Assembly (NCBI GenBank): GCA_965216565.1 | Contig: OZ244170.1 | Coordinates: forward strand, 3,648,001 to 3,712,000 | DNA from: Bythopirellula sp. | Lineage (GTDB): Bacteria; Planctomycetota; Planctomycetia; Pirellulales; Lacipirellulaceae | Length of the DNA stretch: 64,000 nt | Reading direction: 5' to 3' | Translations under genes and position numbers: made by a program | The notes under the pieces: generated by a model | Told to the model about the DNA's origin: nothing | Database searches by the model: none | What the model saw: the letters and a program-made list of their open reading frames with translations, nothing else | Part shown: positions 25,114-64,000 of the stretch, in pieces | Layout of the letters: every line of letters begins with the position of its first letter | Position numbering within the stretch: the first letter of the stretch is position 1

Positions 25114-25569
25114 ATAGCCACAAAAAGCACGAAAAGTTAGTGCGGCGTCATGAGGTATTTTTTGACGTAAAGCTTTTCGCTTCCAAAGTTGATCAACAGG
25201 CCTGTTTCTATTCGCGATGATCTCAAATAGCCCAATAGTTGGGCAACATGTTCGTCTGCAGTTGCCCTACAGGCCTTTAGTTCTACAATCAATTGGCCTT
25301 CAATGAATAGATCGGCAAAGTATTCTCCCAATACCGTTCCGTCTTCATCTATTACGTTGAGGGGATGTTGCTGTAGCACTTGCAACCCTTGTTTCCGTAA
25401 TCGATGTACCAAGGCATTCTCATAAACCTTTTCTAAGTGCCCGCAACGGTGGTATTTGTGGATGTCGAAACTTGTTTGTCGAACGATGTCGCATAATTCG
25501 TTGATCGAATCCCACGCTGCCTTCATGTTCAATTGCCTTCTCGTGACTTTTCGTGTTTTTTGTGGCTAT
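25114..25569. mobile_element. Putative GxxExxY cassette bounded by 24-bp inverted repeats
   Basis: ATAGCCACAAAAAGCACGAAAAGT (25114-25137) and ACTTTTCGTGTTTTTTGTGGCTAT (25546-25569), 23/24 match; mobility is inferred. Confidence 0.6.
25137..25532 (-). CDS. GxxExxY protein (PD-(D/E)XK nuclease-like fold)
   Basis: GHLEKVY motif, ADLFIE...IVELKA, AQLLGYL, GLLINFG. Confidence 0.92.
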   Translation of the reverse strand: MNMKAAWDSINELCDIVRQTSFDIHKYHRCGHLEKVYENALVHRLRKQGLQVLQQHPLNVIDEDGTVLGEYFADLFIEGQLIVELKACRATADEHVAQLLGYLRSSRIETGLLINFGSEKLYVKKYLMTPH

Positions 25570-35899: not shown

Positions 35900-35927
35900 C
35901 TGAAGTGACAAGTGAACCAAGCCTCCT

Positions 35928-36626
35928 CTAACCCCTCCTCTCCGCAGGCGAGTCACCGAGGCGACCTTTCAACGGAGGGGGATCTGTTAATGAATCTAAT
36001 GGTGCACCGTGCTGGAGGTAGGGCTCCAACACATCACGGAGGTTATTACGAGCACGCGACAATAACGACTTGATGGCCGAGGGCGTCAGCTGCATGACAT
36101 CGGCAATTTCTTCATAGCTAAGGTGTTCAAACTTATTTAGCAGCACCGCCATCCGTTGCCGTTCGTTCAGCGTTGCAATGGCGAGTTTTACGACGTCTCT
36201 CAATTCCGCTTTGTCCAACTGACGGGTGGGCATCAGTCCACTAGCTGCGGTGGCTGTTGCTTCAATCGGGTTGGTGGCGTGCTCCCCACTTTCGCGATTC
36301 ACCAGATTGATTTCCTTTCGGCGAGCCAATCCACGCAGGGCATTCAAGGCAACATTATTAGCAATCGTATATAGCCAAGTGGAAAACTTCGATCCCGGGA
36401 TGTAACGTTTACGGGCACGATAGACGCGCAGGAACACTTCCTGAGCCAAGTCCTCTGCCATGTCGCGACGACCCACTTGGTGCGACATGAGCGACACCAG
36501 ACGATTCTGATATCGTTGCATCAGTTCTTCGAAGGCAGTCGCATTGTCATCGCGCACCTGTAGCATTAACCGCACATCGGGATCTTGTGCAGTGAACCGC
36601 TGGGCGGTGGAATCGCTAATGGCCAA
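35928..36626 (-). CDS. ECF RNA polymerase sigma factor
   Basis: AEDLAQEVF, FSTWLYTIANN, LSYEEIA, IKSLLSRAR. Confidence 0.93.
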   Translation of the reverse strand: MAISDSTAQRFTAQDPDVRLMLQVRDDNATAFEELMQRYQNRLVSLMSHQVGRRDMAEDLAQEVFLRVYRARKRYIPGSKFSTWLYTIANNVALNALRGLARRKEINLVNRESGEHATNPIEATATAASGLMPTRQLDKAELRDVVKLAIATLNERQRMAVLLNKFEHLSYEEIADVMQLTPSAIKSLLSRARNNLRDVLEPYLQHGAPLDSLTDPPPLKGRLGDSPAERRG

Positions 36627-52786: not shown

Positions 52787-52827
52787 TCCCCTCCCCCGTC
52801 TTCGAGGGGAGGGGTTAGGGAAGGGGG
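52787..52827. repeat. Solo copy of the DUF559-flanking repeat
   Basis: TCCCCTCCCCCGTCTTCGAGGGGAGGGGTTAGGGAAGGGGG between sigma and anti-sigma. Confidence 0.8.
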
Positions 52828-53539: not shown

Positions 53540-54751
53540 TTGAGCATGGATCCCCTCAATTGGATAGATGACGGCCTCCGGCAACTCCGCCAGCAGGACC
53601 TACTGCGGACGCTTCCCCCGGCGATTGGCGCCGCTGGAGTTGTGGCGGTGGACGAGGGTCAGCGGTATCTAAACTTTGCCTCCAACGACTATCTGGGCTT
53701 GGCGGCCGACCCTCGGCTGGTCGACGCCGCCGTCAATGCCTCGAAATCTACGGGCGTCGGCCGCGGCGCCAGTCCCTTAATCTGCGGTCGCGCCACCTGG
53801 CACGAACGGCTGGAACAGCGGCTGGCAGAATTCGAGCAGACCGAAGCCGCCCTGCTGTTCCCTTCCGGCTTTGCCGCCAATACGGGCGTGATCCCAGCAC
53901 TGGTCGACAAAGACGATGCTGTCTACAGCGATGCTTACAACCACGCGAGCATCGTCGATGGTTGTCGGCTGTCGAGGGCGCAGCGATTTGTCTATCCGCA
54001 TAACGACACCGATGCCCTGGAAAAACTACTGCGTGAGGGCCACAGCTTCCGGCGTCGCCTGATCGTGACCGATACCCTGTTCAGCATGGACGGAGATTTC
54101 GCCACGCTGAGTCAACTGGGCGAGCTGGCTGAAAAATACCAGGCAATGCTGATGGTCGACGAAGCGCACGCCACCGGGGTTTTTGGCGAGCACGGCCGTG
54201 GATTGGTTGAACACTTTGCCGATAGCCACCCTCGGCTGCACGAGCAGGTTCAAGTCCGCGTGGGTACATTGAGCAAATCGCTCGGCTCAGCCGGTGGCTT
54301 CGTTTGTGGAAGCCAGTCTCTGGTGGACTGGCTGGCCAATCGAGCCCGATCTTACGTCTTCTCCACGGCCCACCCCGCGGCAGCCAGCGCCGCAGCACTT
54401 ACGGCATTAGAAATAGTGGAGAGTGAACCCGAGCGACGGCAAAGGTTGCTAGAAACAGCCCAGCGCGTCCGCTTGGAGCTTCGCGAGCAAGGTTGGACAC
54501 TGGGAACAACCACCAGCCAAATCGTGACAATACGCATCGGTTCCGCAGCAAAAACCATGAAGCTGGCGGCGGCACTTCGAGATCGAAACATCTGGGTGGG
54601 AGGAATCCGACCACCGTCAGTGGCGGAGAACGAGTCGCTCCTGCGAATCGGCCTTTCTGCAGCGCACAGCGACGAGATGATTGAGCAATTGCTCGCAACG
54701 CTGGGTGAGTCCCGCAGTTTGGTCCTGGAATCAGTTCCTCTTCAAATGTAG
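53540..54751 (+). CDS. bioF: 8-amino-7-oxononanoate synthase
   Basis: NFASNDYLGL, NHASIVDG, FSMDGD, VDEAHATG, GTLSKSLG, IRPPSV. Confidence 0.92.
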   Translation: MSMDPLNWIDDGLRQLRQQDLLRTLPPAIGAAGVVAVDEGQRYLNFASNDYLGLAADPRLVDAAVNASKSTGVGRGASPLICGRATWHERLEQRLAEFEQTEAALLFPSGFAANTGVIPALVDKDDAVYSDAYNHASIVDGCRLSRAQRFVYPHNDTDALEKLLREGHSFRRRLIVTDTLFSMDGDFATLSQLGELAEKYQAMLMVDEAHATGVFGEHGRGLVEHFADSHPRLHEQVQVRVGTLSKSLGSAGGFVCGSQSLVDWLANRARSYVFSTAHPAAASAAALTALEIVESEPERRQRLLETAQRVRLELREQGWTLGTTTSQIVTIRIGSAAKTMKLAAALRDRNIWVGGIRPPSVAENESLLRIGLSAAHSDEMIEQLLATLGESRSLVLESVPLQM

Positions 54752-55089
54752 CTGGATTCGCAAGAATTCAGATCACACGAGTCTGAATTCTTGCGAATTC
54801 AGCGACGGGTTGCCCAGCAATCGATCGTCGCCCCTAAGTGCAGATCAATCGCAATGTGACGGTTCTGCGGGGTCAAAATCGCCAGCAACGCGGCCCTATT
54901 CTGAGAGTATTCGGTAATCGTAAGCCATAGGCCAGCAAAAACTTGACGCTGCCCAGGTGCCCACTTACGATCGAAAATAGAGGAACTTCCCACCACCTGA
55001 AACACTTTCGTGTGGTCGGTGATAGGCTGTAGCTGAATACGCAAGTATTCAGAACACAAATTCGGCTGAATTCTTGCGAATCCAGCTAC
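54748..55089. repeat. Four 24-bp GTAG-type REP units arranged as two inverted doublets
   Basis: GTAGCTGGATTCGCAAGAATTCAG-like units at 54748-54771(+), 54783-54806(-), 55029-55052(+), 55066-55089(-). Confidence 0.88.
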
Positions 55090-55108
55090 GTTCTACAAGG
55101 AACATCGC

Positions 55109-58549: not shown

Positions 58550-59470
58550 ATGAGTGCAGAAGGTTCGAATCGAAAAATCGTGGTTACCGGTGCTTCCGGG
58601 TTGGTCGGGACACCGCTGGTCAACTCACTCGAAGCCGCGGGGCACGAGGTATTGCGTGCCGTGCGTCGCGAAGTCCGCGATCCTGCGAAAGAACTCTTCT
58701 GGAATCCCGCTGCAGGGGAAATCGACCGAGACAAACTTGCCGGTGCCGATGCGGTGGTGCATTTGGCCGGAGCAAACATCGCGGGCAAGCGCTGGACCGA
58801 GGACTACAAACAAACATTGATCGATAGCCGTGTCGATGGCACGACACTCATCAGCGAGACCATGGCCTCGCTCGATCCCAAGCCACGTGTGTTGGCCTGC
58901 GCTTCGGCCATTGGCTACTACGGAGATCGCGGCGTCGAAGTGCTCGACGAATCCGCTTCCAGCGGCGATGCCTTTCTGCCCGAAGTCTGTTTGCAATGGG
59001 AACGCGCTTGCCAACCAGCCCGCGACGCGGGTATCCGCGTCGCCAACATGCGACTCGGCGTAGTTCTAAGCCCCGAAGGTGGTGCGCTTGCCAAGATGCT
59101 GCCGCCGTTCAAGATGGGGGCCGGCGGAGTTCTAGGAAGTGGCAAGCAATACTTCAGCTGGATCTCACTCAACGATGCTGTTGATGCCATCGAACACGTT
59201 TTGGAAACCCAAGACATTACCGGACCCGTGAATCTTGTGGCACCGGCCCCGGTCACCAACCGCGAATTCACCAAGGCCTTAGGCAAGGTTCTGTCCCGCC
59301 CCACGGTGATCCCCATGCCCGCCTTTGCGGCAAAATTGGCATTGGGCGAGATGGCCGATGCCCTCCTGCTGGCTAGCACACGGGTCGATCCCAAAGTGCT
59401 ACGGGAGACGCAATTCCAGTTTCAGCATCCCACCGTAGAATCTGCTCTGAGAGATCTCCTGCAGAAATAG
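58550..59470 (+). CDS. TIGR01777 (YfcH-like) NAD(P)-binding epimerase family protein
   Basis: VTGASGLVG, HLAGANIAGKRWT, SAIGYYG, GSGKQYFSWI. Confidence 0.9.
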   Translation: MSAEGSNRKIVVTGASGLVGTPLVNSLEAAGHEVLRAVRREVRDPAKELFWNPAAGEIDRDKLAGADAVVHLAGANIAGKRWTEDYKQTLIDSRVDGTTLISETMASLDPKPRVLACASAIGYYGDRGVEVLDESASSGDAFLPEVCLQWERACQPARDAGIRVANMRLGVVLSPEGGALAKMLPPFKMGAGGVLGSGKQYFSWISLNDAVDAIEHVLETQDITGPVNLVAPAPVTNREFTKALGKVLSRPTVIPMPAFAAKLALGEMADALLLASTRVDPKVLRETQFQFQHPTVESALRDLLQK

Positions 59471-59547
59471 CCTCTCTTTTTGAGGGCCATTGTGAGAACT
59501 ATCTCATGCGGTAAAATGGGGGGTTCTAACATTACAGCGCAGGGTGA

Positions 59548-59743
59548 GCTTGAAATGGGGACTAGCTCGTGATTGCTGAGTTATGTTTTGGGAATTGATT
59601 AAACGTAGCTAAAATCACGTGCCTGTCCCCATTTCAAGCGGAAGTTACAGATGGTCCGTCGAAAAAAGGGACAGGCACGACGACGTTGCGTGCGATGAGG
59701 GCTCAAGCCGTGTTCGAGCGTCGAGCCAGTCCCTATTTTCGAC
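59548..59743. repeat. Two oppositely oriented short elements with GGGACAGGCAC / GAGCCAGTCCC asymmetric inverted ends
   Basis: 59548-59639 (24/27 arms) and 59658-59743 (22/25 arms). Confidence 0.8.
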
Positions 59744-59795
59744 TCGCAACTCGGCGCTGTAATACTTAACTCTCTCATGGAACTCAGGAATCGCT

Positions 59796-61214
59796 ATGCA
59801 CTCACAGGTCGTGGTACTTGGAGGAGGACCCGGGGGGTACGCTGCTGCCTTTATGGCTGCGGATCTCGGCATGGAAGTCACGATCGTCGAAGCCGATGAC
59901 CGACTAGGCGGAACTTGCCTGTTGCGGGGATGCATCCCATCCAAGGCACTGCTGCACGTAGCGAAGGTGATCAGTGAAGCCCGCGAAATGACGGAGTGGG
60001 GTGTCGCCTTTGGCAAAATGAAGCTGAAGGTCGACACCATGCGCGACCGCAAGAATCAGGTTATCGAAACGCTCTCCGGCGGGCTGGCCCAACTGGCCAA
60101 ACGTCGCAAAGTACAAGTGATCCATGCCCGCGGCGTGTTTGTAGATTCACAAACCTTGGAGCTTGAGAATGTCGATGAATCCAAGCACGATAGCTCGCGA
60201 CTGACTTTCGACCATTGCATCTTGGCCACAGGCTCTGTGCCCGCAATGCCAAAGATGTTCGACATTGGCTCGCCTCGGGTGATGGACTCCACGGGTGCTC
60301 TGCAATTGGCCGACGTGCCGAAATCTCTATTGGTAATCGGCGGTGGCTACATCGGCCTCGAAATGGGCACCGTCTATGCCGAACTCGGTTCGGAGGTGTC
60401 GGTTGTCGAATTGACCGAGGGACTTTTGCCGGGCGCCGATCGGGATTTGGTCAAGCCTTTAGAAAAACGTTTGCAGGGCCTGTGCAAGGAAATTCGGCTG
60501 GGCACGAAGGTTGTCGGGTTAAAAGAAAAAGGCAAACAGATTGAAGTGCAGATGCAGGGCCCGGATTTCGAGGGCGCGCTGACCTACGACCGGGTGTTAG
60601 TTTCTGTGGGACGTCGCCCTGTATCGCACGGCATTGGGCTGGAGAACACGAAAGTCACCCTCACCGAGCAAGGCTTTGTAGAGGTCGACGCCCAGCAACG
60701 CACATCCGACCCTCATATTTTGGCAATTGGCGACATTGCCGGCGAACCGATGCTGGCTCACAAGGCCTCGCACGAGGGCAAAGTGGCTGCGGAGGTACTC
60801 GCCGGCGAACCTGCTGCCTTCGAGCCGCAGGCCATGCCAGCCGTGGTGTTCACCGACCCCGAAATTGCCTGGGCCGGGCTCACCGAAGGCGAAGCCAAAC
60901 AGAGCGGTCGCAAAGTAAAAGTCAGCCAATACCCCTGGCAAGCCAGCGGCCGGGCAATCGCCATCGGCCGAACCGACGGCATGACCAAGTGGCTCGTGGA
61001 TCCTGAAACCGACCGTGTGTTGGGCTGTGGGATTGTCGGTTCTGGCGCAGGAGATTTGATTTCCGAAGCGGTGGTCGCCATTGAAATGGGTTGTGTCGTC
61101 CGCGACGTGGCCGACTCGATTCATCCTCATCCCACGTTGAGTGAAACGGTCGCCTTTGCCGGCGAAGTTCACCTGGGAACCGCGACTGAGGTTTATCGTC
61201 CGAAGAGAAAGTAG
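59796..61214 (+). CDS. lpdA: Dihydrolipoamide dehydrogenase
   Basis: GGGPGGY, GGTCLLRGCIPSK, GGGYIGLE, HPHPTLSE. Confidence 0.97.
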   Translation: MHSQVVVLGGGPGGYAAAFMAADLGMEVTIVEADDRLGGTCLLRGCIPSKALLHVAKVISEAREMTEWGVAFGKMKLKVDTMRDRKNQVIETLSGGLAQLAKRRKVQVIHARGVFVDSQTLELENVDESKHDSSRLTFDHCILATGSVPAMPKMFDIGSPRVMDSTGALQLADVPKSLLVIGGGYIGLEMGTVYAELGSEVSVVELTEGLLPGADRDLVKPLEKRLQGLCKEIRLGTKVVGLKEKGKQIEVQMQGPDFEGALTYDRVLVSVGRRPVSHGIGLENTKVTLTEQGFVEVDAQQRTSDPHILAIGDIAGEPMLAHKASHEGKVAAEVLAGEPAAFEPQAMPAVVFTDPEIAWAGLTEGEAKQSGRKVKVSQYPWQASGRAIAIGRTDGMTKWLVDPETDRVLGCGIVGSGAGDLISEAVVAIEMGCVVRDVADSIHPHPTLSETVAFAGEVHLGTATEVYRPKRK

Positions 61215-61255
61215 TACTTATAAATGTTGAGGAAACGGGTTTAGGCCGAGAACAA

Positions 61256-61713
61256 TCCCCCTCCCTCGCAGGGAGGGGTTAGGGGAGGGTAGGATTAGGC
61301 TGGACTCATGGGCTCGCGATCAAAAAAACGAGTAAGCCAGCAAACCCGTGATCGGGCACTTAAACTAAGGAAACAAACAACTGAGCCAGAAAAGCTCTTG
61401 TGGTCGATACTTCGCGCTCGCCAGCTTGCTGGCCTGAAGTTTCGCCGACAACACCCCATCGAACCCTATATCGTTGATTTCTATTGTGCTCCTTGCCAAT
61501 TGGTTATCGAACTCGATGGAGAAAGTCACGAAGGTCGTCAACAATATGACGCAGAGAGAGAAAAATACCTGCATAACTTAGGATTGACAGTCTTCCGAGT
61601 TACTAACGATGACGTAATGAATAATTTGGAAGGTGTGGCCGAAGCGATTTACAGGGCCACATTGAATGAAAGACCCCTCCCCTAACCCCTCCCCTGCAGA
61701 CAGGGGAGAGGGA
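61256..61713. mobile_element. Putative DUF559 cassette bounded by inverted G/C-rich palindromic repeats
   Basis: TCCCCCTCCCTCGCAGGGAGGGGTTAGGGGAGGGT (61256-61290) and ACCCCTCCCCTAACCCCTCCCCTGCAGACAGGGGAGAGGGA (61673-61713); mobility is inferred. Confidence 0.62.
61308..61685 (+). CDS. DUF559 / Vsr-like endonuclease domain protein
   Basis: TEPEKLLWSILR, KFRRQHPI, YIVDFYC, IELDGESH, FRVTNDDV. Confidence 0.93.
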   Translation: MGSRSKKRVSQQTRDRALKLRKQTTEPEKLLWSILRARQLAGLKFRRQHPIEPYIVDFYCAPCQLVIELDGESHEGRQQYDAEREKYLHNLGLTVFRVTNDDVMNNLEGVAEAIYRATLNERPLP

Positions 61714-61742
61714 CAAATGGGCAGCGAAAACAAAGGCCCCCT

Positions 61743-64000
61743 ATGTCTGATACAAAAACCGATATCCCACCGTCACCAATTCCAGATGACGTCGACCCTG
61801 GCGAAACCGCGGAATGGTTGGAGTCGCTCGATTACGTGCTGGAAAGCAAAGGCCCCGAGCGCGTAGGGAAATTGCTGCACGTGCTCGACGAAGCGGCGCA
61901 CCGCAACGGAGTGGAACTGCCGTTCACGGCGACCACTCCTTACTACAATACCATTCCCCGCGACAAGCAACCGCCCTACCCCGGCAATCGAGAGCTGGAA
62001 CGCCGCATCAAAAGCTTCGTACGTTGGAACGCCATGGCGATGGTCACCCGCGCCAACCGCGACCCGGCCGCCCCGGGCGGACATATCTCCACTTTTGCCT
62101 CCTCGGCCACGTTGTATGAAGTGGCCCAGAACCACTTTTTCCGCGGTCGGGGCGAGGATGGTTTCGGCGGCGATCAGGTTTACTACCAAGGTCATGCCGC
62201 CCCTGGTATGTACGCGCGAGCCTTTTTGGAAGGCCGTCTCACCGAGCAAAACCTGGTGAACTTCCGTCGCGAACTCAGCGAAGGTGGCGGGCTTTCGTCC
62301 TATCCCCATCCCTGGTTGATGCCGGAGTTCTGGGAGTTCCCCACCGTTTCGATGGGACTCGCGCCCATCATGGCCATCTATCAGGCGCGGTTCAACGAGT
62401 ACCTGAATGACCGAGGCATTCTCGACACCACCAACAAGCGTGTCTGGGCTTTCCTGGGTGACGGCGAGTGTGACGAACCGGAAACGCTCGGTGCCATTAC
62501 CCTGGCCGCCCGCGAGCATCTCAACAATCTGACCTTCGTAATCAATTGCAATCTGCAACGCCTCGACGGCCCGGTGCGCGGCAATGGTAAGATTATTCAG
62601 GAACTGGAAGGAGCGTTCCGAGGTGCCGGTTGGAATGTGATCAAAGTCATTTGGGGCAACGATTGGGATCCCCTGTTGGAAGAAGACGACCTCGGAATAC
62701 TCGCCCGGAGGATGATGGAAGTCGTAGATGGCCAATACCAAAAATATGTGGTCTCGCCTGGCAGCTTCATCCGCGAGGATTTCTTCGGCAAGTATCCTGA
62801 ACTGTTGGAAATGGTGAAAAACTACTCCGACGAAAAAATCGCTAAGCTCCGTCGTGGAGGACACGATCCTGAGAAGGTTTACGCGGCATACAAAGCTGCC
62901 GTCGAGTGCAAGGATCGACCCTCGGTTATCATTGCCAAAACCATTAAAGGCTATGGCCTGGGCGAAGGCGGCGAAGGCCGCAATGTCACCCACAACCAGA
63001 AAAAGCTCAACGAAGATGAGTTGCGCGAATTCCGCACCCGCTTTGGCATCCCGATCTCCGATGAGAAGGTTTCTGAGGCACCGTTCTATCGTCCGCCGGA
63101 AAACAGTCCCGAGATGATTTACCTGCGCGAGCGACGCGAAGCTCTGGGTGGCTCAGTTCCCAGTCGAACGGCCAAGCCAATTACAATGAAAGTGCCCACT
63201 CTGGCCGACTACGAAAAAACGCTGCCCAAGCTCGTCAGCAAAGGCCCCGGCAAAGAAATGTCGACCACCATGGGCTTTGTCCGATTGTTAAGCGACCTGC
63301 TGCGAGACAAGCAAATCGGCAAGCACATTGTACCGATTGTTCCCGATGAATCTCGCACGTTTGGTATGGAAGGCTTGTTCCGGCAAGTTGGCATCTACGC
63401 CCACACGGGCCAGCATTACGATCCGGTCGACTCCGATCAAATCGCCTTCTACAAAGAGGCCCGTGATGGCCAACTCTTAGAAGAGGGCATCACCGAGGCG
63501 GGGTCGATGTCGTCGTTCAACGCTGCCGGCACGGCTTATGCTTCGCATGGCGTGAACATGATTCCCATGTTCATTTACTATTCGATGTTTGGCTTCCAGC
63601 GCATTGGCGACCTGGTTTGGGCGGCAGCCGACATGCGGGCCAAAGGCTTTATGCTCGGCGGCACCGCAGGACGCACCACCCTCAATGGCGAAGGACTCCA
63701 GCACCAGGACGGGCACAGCCTATTGAATGCGATCGCGTTCCCCACCGTACGCTCGTACGATCCGGCCTACGCCTACGAGACGGCCGTGATTATCTTCGAC
63801 GGACTGAAACGGATGTACGAAGACAACGAGACCGCCATCTACTACATCACGCTGGAGAACGAAAACTACCTGATGCCCGAGATGCCCGAGGGCTGTGAAG
63901 AAGGCATCATTCGCGGCATGTACCAGGTGGCATCGCAGGAGGCGAAGGGCCATCGGGTCCAGCTATTCGGTAGTGGTGCCATTCTGCGAGAAACGTTGCG
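61743..64000 (+). CDS. aceE: Pyruvate dehydrogenase E1 (homodimeric); runs off the window end
   Basis: Manual translation: DDVDPGETAEWLESL, GGHISTFAS, LSSYPHPWLMP, GDGECDEPE, NCNLQRLDGPVRGN, GRTTLNGEGLQHQDG. Confidence 0.96.
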   Translation, partial: MSDTKTDIPPSPIPDDVDPGETAEWLESLDYVLESKGPERVGKLLHVLDEAAHRNGVELPFTATTPYYNTIPRDKQPPYPGNRELERRIKSFVRWNAMAMVTRANRDPAAPGGHISTFASSATLYEVAQNHFFRGRGEDGFGGDQVYYQGHAAPGMYARAFLEGRLTEQNLVNFRRELSEGGGLSSYPHPWLMPEFWEFPTVSMGLAPIMAIYQARFNEYLNDRGILDTTNKRVWAFLGDGECDEPETLGAITLAAREHLNNLTFVINCNLQRLDGPVRGNGKIIQELEGAFRGAGWNVIKVIWGNDWDPLLEEDDLGILARRMMEVVDGQYQKYVVSPGSFIREDFFGKYPELLEMVKNYSDEKIAKLRRGGHDPEKVYAAYKAAVECKDRPSVIIAKTIKGYGLGEGGEGRNVTHNQKKLNEDELREFRTRFGIPISDEKVSEAPFYRPPENSPEMIYLRERREALGGSVPSRTAKPITMKVPTLADYEKTLPKLVSKGPGKEMSTTMGFVRLLSDLLRDKQIGKHIVPIVPDESRTFGMEGLFRQVGIYAHTGQHYDPVDSDQIAFYKEARDGQLLEEGITEAGSMSSFNAAGTAYASHGVNMIPMFIYYSMFGFQRIGDLVWAAADMRAKGFMLGGTAGRTTLNGEGLQHQDGHSLLNAIAFPTVRSYDPAYAYETAVIIFDGLKRMYEDNETAIYYITLENENYLMPEMPEGCEEGIIRGMYQVASQEAKGHRVQLFGSGAILRETL

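Follow-up and report, generated by a model that had tools for sequence, protein, structure and literature searches.

A DUF559 nuclease gene framed by inverted triplex-type repeats between lpdA and aceE of Bythopirellula sp., and its pairing with such repeats across bacteria

The cassette between lpdA and aceE

The window analyzed here comprises 64,000 nucleotides of a 5.2-Mb Bythopirellula sp. genome. At its right end it contains lpdA for dihydrolipoyl dehydrogenase (59796..61214, TIGR01350) and aceE for pyruvate dehydrogenase E1 (61743..64000, TIGR00759; 900 aa, extending beyond the window). Between these two host genes lies a DUF559 gene of 125 aa (61308..61685; YcjD-like, Vsr/EDxHD fold), and all three are located on the plus strand. 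The gene is framed by two copies of a class II intrastrand-triplex motif, found by inverted-repeat and triplex-motif detection. The left repeat (61258..61289, plus strand) reads CCCCTCCC-TCGCA-GGGAGGGG-TTA-GGGGAGGG and consists of a pyrimidine arm (61258-61265), a loop (61266-61270), a purine arm (61271-61278), TTA (61279-61281) and a mirror third strand (61282-61289). The right repeat (61674..61712, minus strand) shows the same motif, with the third strand at 61674-61682, the TTA loop, read as TAA, at 61683-61685 and the hairpin at 61686-61712. The inverted arms (61258-61289 and 61675-61706) are 81% complementary, and both third-strand tails are directed into the gene, whose final codons R-P-L-P and stop are complementary to the tail and the TTA loop of the right repeat. 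The whole unit, from repeat to repeat, has a size of 455 bp. The GC content of the gene is 46.6%, compared to 58.0% for lpdA and 56.8% for aceE. For the hairpins alone, the folding energy is roughly -10 to -12 kcal/mol, with z between -1.5 and -3.2. A preliminary description of the locus had reported an AT-richer 125-aa nuclease-fold gene with inverted hairpin-plus-tail flanks, its last codons and TAA derived from the right repeat, and Pfam, GC and repeat searches agree with this. The four G-runs it noted in 61271-61289 are seen on inspection, and the solo repeats it mentioned elsewhere in the window were located as well (see below).

The cassette is also in place in a contig of another study (X5), which covers 59800-62063 and differs in 18 letters, so it is not an assembly artefact. 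In run X6, lpdA and aceE are covered and the gene body is uncovered; because no contig joins across the junction, this run was not scored as an empty allele. A promoter scan of the locus revealed no promoter-like site near the DUF559 gene, and terminator-like counts around it were within chance. There was no Rfam match in 59400-62000, and the PADLOC anti-phage models matched 0 families. Among 50 DUF559 loci, the ATG lies at most 20 nt from the left G-tail in 30, and the stop codon lies inside or at most 20 nt from the right repeat in 36. The gene probably lacks its own promoter and would be read from the host operon; the left G-tail may often provide the ribosome site, and the right repeat the stop codon.

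The protein matches the Pfam model DUF559 (PF04480) with an E value of 3e-38 and 130.4 bits (cut-off 20.6). For the E. coli YcjD equivalog model NF007294 it reaches 84.6 bits against a cut-off of 218, and it is a homologue of YcjD rather than an equivalog. The AlphaFold model has a pLDDT of 85. Its best fold matches are the uncharacterised Neisseria protein 3hrl and the catalytic domain of I-Bth0305I (3r3p), and Vsr matches more weakly. Q48, D57, E68, D70, G71 and H74 are conserved in 79 of 79 DUF559 proteins, D81 in 78 and E28 in 77. D57, D70 and D81 align with D196, N208 and D222 of I-Bth0305I, and H74 is one column off H213 (active-site residues as given in the part of PMC3239194 that was consulted). 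Internal stops occur in 3 of 79 copies. Of 18 pairs compared, 7 were saturated and the remaining 11 gave a dN/dS of 0.04-0.39. Judged from the alignments, the Vsr/I-Bth0305I active site is retained in the protein, which is under purifying selection and is probably an active nuclease. It has no NUMOD, no separate DNA-binding domain and no strand-transfer residue. The homodimer prediction scored 0.01 (mark 0.42), which says nothing either way.

By its sequence, the repeat can be placed as a variant within the established BoxC/PIT/TM family of intrastrand triplexes, a membership which the preliminary description overlooked. These repeats have been known since the 1990s, form triplexes in vitro and mark unstable loci; the accessible text of Holder et al. 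(2015, PMC4666352), where the family is named BoxC/PIT/TMECO, assigns them no enzyme or origin. TM sites stop polymerases in vitro and were linked to instability, and protection in vivo was undetected (PMC4666352, same text). BoxC/PIT/TMECO shares with the window repeat the C-rich arm, the loop, the G-rich arm, the 3-nt TTA loop and the mirror G-rich third strand, and it is likewise intergenic, dispersed and sometimes arranged in inverted doublets. Both window arms combine a pyrimidine arm, a purine arm and a mirror third strand with G:G and A:A/T matches; the tail mirrors the purine arm of the hairpin, as in a class II purine-motif intrastrand triplex. They represent a shorter-stem variant with an 8-9-bp stem and differ on inspection from the strict TMECO consensus (CCCTCNCCC N3-6 GGGNGAGGG N3 GGGNGAGGG), as neither has GGGNGAGGG.

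The preliminary description had stressed a competition of hairpin and G-quadruplex (G4) folds, and this emphasis did not hold, since the tail obeys purine-motif triplex rules. With the register fixed using G matches only, the base opposite a purine-arm A in 81 distinct flank motifs was A in 95 cases, T in 47, C in 1 and G in 0, thus A or T in 142 of 143. Four G3 runs were present in 66 of 88 flank motif placements and missing from 22. Because of the A/T rule and these 22 placements, the conserved fold of the family is most likely a triplex, and G4 as the conserved fold was rejected. The window copy may possibly adopt a G4, but this would not be the shared feature of the family. For the homologous motif of E. 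coli, NMR gave a triplex and not a G4 (Holder et al., 2015, PMC4666352), though CD in K+ was read as an ion-dependent G4/hairpin switch (HPG1/HPG2; Kaplan et al., 2016, PMC5100583). The accessible part of the latter work lists one copy between fabI and a gene spelled 'yjcD'.

Pairing of gene and repeat

The short-loop form of the triplex motif occurs 61 times in the genome and 0 times in the genome read backwards, so the motifs are not due to chance. Long ORFs, which cover 81% of sampled positions, contain 16 of the 61. The genome has two DUF559 genes, the second of which is framed by a long-loop variant of the repeat. One solo repeat in the window, of the right-arm subtype, is located at 52788..52825 (plus strand). 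The other (35922..35981, minus strand) is a composite long-loop repeat, and its loop gives the TAG stop of an ECF sigma ORF (35928-36626). Each of the two has an ECF sigma gene on one side and an anti-sigma-like gene on the other. Gene-less inverted doublets with inward tails, often pairing two subtypes, were seen at G000:C1:20716-20804, 973147-973235, 3087773-3087862, 2306774-2306908, 4273950-4274035 and 5165173-5165346. Such doublets were also reported for TMECO in E. coli in the part of PMC4666352 consulted. At G000:C1:4174049-4174878 an inward-facing composite-repeat pair surrounds an unrelated ORF (~130-150 aa) which is not DUF559.

For the pairing survey, 79 distinct DUF559 loci were collected from genus, class and GTDB matches, including the window locus and E. 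coli K-12; 5 were dropped because of short flanks, and the sample is biased toward close relatives and top-scoring matches. An inward-facing motif was found upstream at 58 of 74 loci, downstream at 48, on both sides at 42 and on either side at 64. Control windows 700-1300 nt away contained the motif in 1 and 2 of 282. Extra outward-facing copies occur at 22 and 16 loci. The triplex detector requires an 8-purine stem and misses short-stem and pure-G variants, which are visible by eye at L043, L089, L112, L201 and L202, so that the true number in this set of loci is at least 64 of 74. No such flank was seen at L067, L073 and L205. A general lack of these flanks among homologues, which the preliminary description had named as evidence against its reading, was not found.

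The DUF559 matches span Planctomycetota, Pseudomonadota, Chloroflexota, Bacillota, Bacteroidota and others, and the pairing is found in at least 8 phyla. The repeat subtype (short-loop, long-loop or hairpin-in-loop) tracks the protein clade, and the repeats remain alignable between copies with saturated synonymous sites. Among plasmids, 46 records match DUF559; of 6 loci checked, 3 score, 2 carry pure-G variants and 1 shows nothing. In one genome (L042 in G004) a close homologue is framed in the reverse order of G-tail, G-arm and C-arm, a would-be class I-type triplex. DUF559 matches within open frames of 545-1106 aa in G185, G275, G056 and G181 are possibly in-frame insertions or fusions. The accessible texts of PMC4666352 and PMC5100583 name no partner gene for BoxC/PIT/TMECO, in contrast to the window repeat, which frames DUF559; the former describes no mobility genes near TMECO, and ycjD is absent from its main text. 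Among the more recent, mostly non-subscription main texts searched, we found no link of DUF559 or ycjD to BoxC/TM, nor does the part of PMC3184786 consulted contain one.

DUF559 is present in 84 of 251 genomes of the class, usually in 1-4 copies per genome. A TMECO-like pattern, which detects just 6 of the ~61 motifs of the present genome, was found in 55 of the 84 gene-bearing and 36 of the 167 gene-less genomes. At least three solo repeats, after subtraction of two per gene, occur in 28/84 versus 23/167 (Fisher p 4e-4, which is overstated because kin genomes are not independent). Of 5426 E. coli genomes, 3378 carry ycjD, with essentially the same locus in all of them. The motif counts of six chromosomes with ycjD (28, 28, 22, 22, 16, 13; one of them with a frameshifted ycjD) exceed those of six without (16, 12, 11, 2, 2, 1; p 0.01). 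According to the accessible part of PMC12817139, ycjD is distributed by phylogroup and is found in alternation with the eef efflux locus. One E. coli strain (L198) has an intact motif across the ycjD stop codon, oriented as in the window, and K-12 ycjD has only a degenerate motif, with none upstream. The co-occurrence of gene and repeat number, which the preliminary description had suggested to examine, is positive for the overall class and E. coli contrasts, but within families only one of five tested is significant (f24, 11/26 vs 2/34) and 14 gene-less class genomes hold at least 10 repeats.

Position of the cassette and its derivatives

DUF559 is absent from the lpdA-aceE junction in 60 of 60 family genomes fetched, which were chosen, mostly by score and by long contigs, out of 111 with an aceE match. 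It is also missing there in 21 of 21 relatives first examined, a set that overlaps the 60. The tailed triplex motif occurs at this junction in 0 of the 60, and one locus (L184) has a single tail-less hairpin. Close homologues (55-66% identical) are located at aceE-aceF in five genomes, namely in 2 of 54 scorable ones and at L183, L049 and L050. Independent insertion of these five copies is not supported, as one clade was not rejected (AU p 0.115); the DUF559 phylogeny of 79 proteins is a quick tree. Among congeners and paralogues the position of DUF559 varies. The stable synteny that would have spoken against the preliminary description is thus not seen within the family, and the alleles it had suggested to look for include empty junctions (0/60 with the gene at lpdA-aceE) as well as collapsed and gene-deleted forms.

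Derivatives of the cassette were found at several sites. One genome (G018) contains five copies of a ~700-bp long-loop module at separate sites with 86-92% identity, some of them broken. In the same genome, L225 and L226 are gene-less derivatives in which the left arm is fused to the right via shared purine-arm microhomology. At L138, both repeats and both gene ends are retained and the core is gone; a 19-aa end is 63% identical to L037. By eye, no target-site duplication outside the hairpins was seen in six aligned cassettes. No clean pre-insertion allele was found in close relatives with three queries of the closest genome pair: two lacked orthologous flanks on both sides, and the third is a deletion retaining half of the right repeat. 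When the cassettes of 24 relatives were compared with the present genome, a syntenic junction existed only at aceE-aceF (five loci) and one other site. The matched junctions in this genome hold none of the repeat, and two further pairings looked spurious.

At five lpdA-aceE loci (L136, L144, L150, L151, L187) one inverted pair is nested within a pair from a different repeat family, a pattern that would arise if elements inserted in the middle of a doublet already present. The BoxC-type hairpin of L184 occupies this central position.

Possible roles of the DUF559 protein

The gene-repeat unit is real and represents a known kind of repeat-plus-enzyme system in a new form, with a mechanism that we infer. 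Its anatomy, cross-phyla pairing, patchy and shifting position, duplicates and gene-deleted derivatives were directly seen, as were conserved catalytic residues and purifying selection. On balance, we lean towards a cassette that is gained and lost at many sites, with DUF559 as the likely cognate nuclease of its repeats: the protein is predicted to nick the triplex-folded repeat, and host repair would then move the cassette and seed solo repeats. DUF559 would thereby be the likely missing partner that spreads or maintains the long-known orphan BoxC-type repeats. The repeat would fold into the triplex on transiently single-stranded DNA, where the DUF559 protein would recognise and nick it. A Vsr-fold protein of 125 aa that lacks both a strand-transfer residue and a separate DNA-binding domain must rely on the host for integration; host repair would duplicate the cassette, cut it out or insert it again, and leave solo repeats behind. 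Each hairpin is palindromic, so the two ends share direct repeats of 8-10 nt. Recombination via these may collapse the cassette to one tail-less hairpin, and such products were seen; the reverse reaction would insert a cassette at an existing hairpin, an event that was not seen. Nick-primed copying may be an alternative route to new sites for the cassette or a lone repeat.

Several observations speak against a cognate nuclease. In E. coli, ycjD stays at a single locus (3378/5426) and K-12 lacks the upstream motif. There are the 14 gene-less genomes with at least 10 repeats, the repeat pair around an unrelated ORF and the unflanked loci L067, L073 and L205. Neither a target-site duplication nor a clean pre-insertion allele was seen, and the aceE-aceF insertions are possibly one clade (AU p 0.115). 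A bolder form of the cognate-nuclease reading, which we hold only tentatively, is a minimal transposase-free selfish element. Here a 120-aa Vsr-fold nuclease would read the triplex at its own ends, nick, and excise or re-insert at other hairpins through the 8-10-nt direct repeats, generating the bacterial BoxC/TM populations; GxxExxY would be an independent family of the same design, both competing for the same operon junctions.

The single locus of ycjD in 3378 E. coli genomes would also fit a domesticated host factor, a structure-specific repair nuclease that resolves triplex roadblocks or serves a repeat-based host function and moves rarely and passively, like RAYT genes. Vsr itself functions in repair, polymerases are stopped at TM sites in vitro and these sites have been linked to instability (PMC4666352, accessible text), and the usual 1-4 copies per genome and the purifying selection point in the same direction. 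However, the position differs among congeners and paralogues, one genome has five recent copies, some broken, and just 84 of 251 class genomes have the gene. A repair gene also needs no framing by its own substrate in a fixed orientation, and we regard such a host role as rather unlikely. Repeat-rich genomes without DUF559 and the pair around an unrelated ORF would be expected if the gene were a passenger, captured once and kept for its ribosome site, stop codon and recombination handles, with the repeats spread by another enzyme, replication errors or recombination. Every derivative seen could be explained by microhomology deletion in the host. This is improbable in our view, given that the pairing extends over at least 8 phyla while the repeat subtype changes with the protein clade, that the catalytic residues are invariant and that the cassettes showed no enzyme gene besides DUF559; repeats can also outlive their enzyme, as described for REPINs (10.1101/2021.07.10.451892, in the part consulted). 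Finally, the four G-runs in 61271-61289, the G3 pattern in 66 of 88 flank motifs and the CD results on the E. coli motif, which point to an ion-dependent switch (PMC5100583, accessible part), could suggest that a regulatory G4/hairpin switch modulates the pyruvate dehydrogenase operon and that the nuclease acts on the G4. Against this stand the 22 of 88 motifs unable to form a G4, the A/T rule (142/143), the NMR triplex (PMC4666352, accessible text) and the tailed motif in 0 of 60 relatives at lpdA-aceE, which make it very unlikely.

The preliminary description had compared the layout to REP/RAYT systems with a non-HUH nuclease, and this is borne out by the 64 of 74 flanked loci and by Pfam, NCBIfam and fold searches, which yield the DUF559/Vsr fold only. 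As in REP/REPIN-RAYT systems, a small enzyme gene is framed by inverted copies of a cognate repeat that is dispersed as singles and doublets, and low gene copy number and patchy loss are shared (10.1101/2021.07.10.451892, in the part consulted). The REP-RAYT enzyme is an HUH/Y1 transposase (TnpA-REP), whereas DUF559 is Vsr/PD-(D/E)XK-like and no HUH/Y1 enzyme; its repeat is a triplex motif, unlike REP. The accessible text of the same source describes RAYTs as vertically transmitted genes at fixed sites that do not occur on plasmids. In contrast, DUF559 is located at different sites within one genus, is duplicated and is also carried by plasmids, and a single-copy, fixed and plasmid-free state is true for E. 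coli ycjD only. With Vsr and the EDxHD homing endonucleases (I-Bth0305I, PMC3239194, in the part consulted) DUF559 has the fold and the active-site residues E, D, H and D in common. Unlike homing endonucleases, it is a free-standing intergenic gene of 125 aa without NUMOD, and no intron or intein was seen; unlike Vsr, it has no Dcm-like methylase neighbour and has structured repeats at both sides. MITEs are internally deleted derivatives of parent insertion sequences which retain both ends. L138, L225 and L226 are MITE-like in their internal deletion with both ends kept. Unlike insertion sequences, the cassette encodes no transposase from any known family, and a target-site duplication was not seen.

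If the cognate-nuclease reading is true, the REP-RAYT design would extend to a nuclease without strand-transfer chemistry, the large unknown-function family DUF559 would gain a function, and a bacterial protein would be known to recognise an intrastrand DNA triplex that occurs naturally. The question is directly testable, as E. coli K-12 already carries ycjD as a candidate partner. The window locus contributes the triplex rule test, the deletion products and the survey of two junctions at which cassettes of two nuclease families swap.

The second of these families is represented in the window by a separate GxxExxY cassette (25114..25569, minus strand; gene 25137-25532, TIGR04256) between 24-nt inverted repeats. 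A repeat common to GxxExxY and DUF559 was considered and rejected, as the flanking sequences are unrelated to the triplex motif. The preliminary description was right about this cassette, but instead of a joint system with DUF559 it forms a parallel one with its own repeat. GxxExxY cassettes with their own repeat were found at lpdA-aceE in 2 of 60 and at aceE-aceF in 5 of 54 family genomes. Within the family, related cassettes and gene-less doublets occur repeatedly at both pyruvate dehydrogenase junctions (L128, L131, L132, L154, L159, L179, L180). Just beyond the window, the aceE-aceF junction of the present genome (G000:C1:3712445-3712643) has no DUF559 and contains an imperfect inverted pair which looks GxxExxY-type by eye. 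Further inverted-repeat families in the window are a 38-nt pair with an extra internal copy (54734-55103) and a 27-nt inverted pair directly upstream of lpdA (59548-59639).
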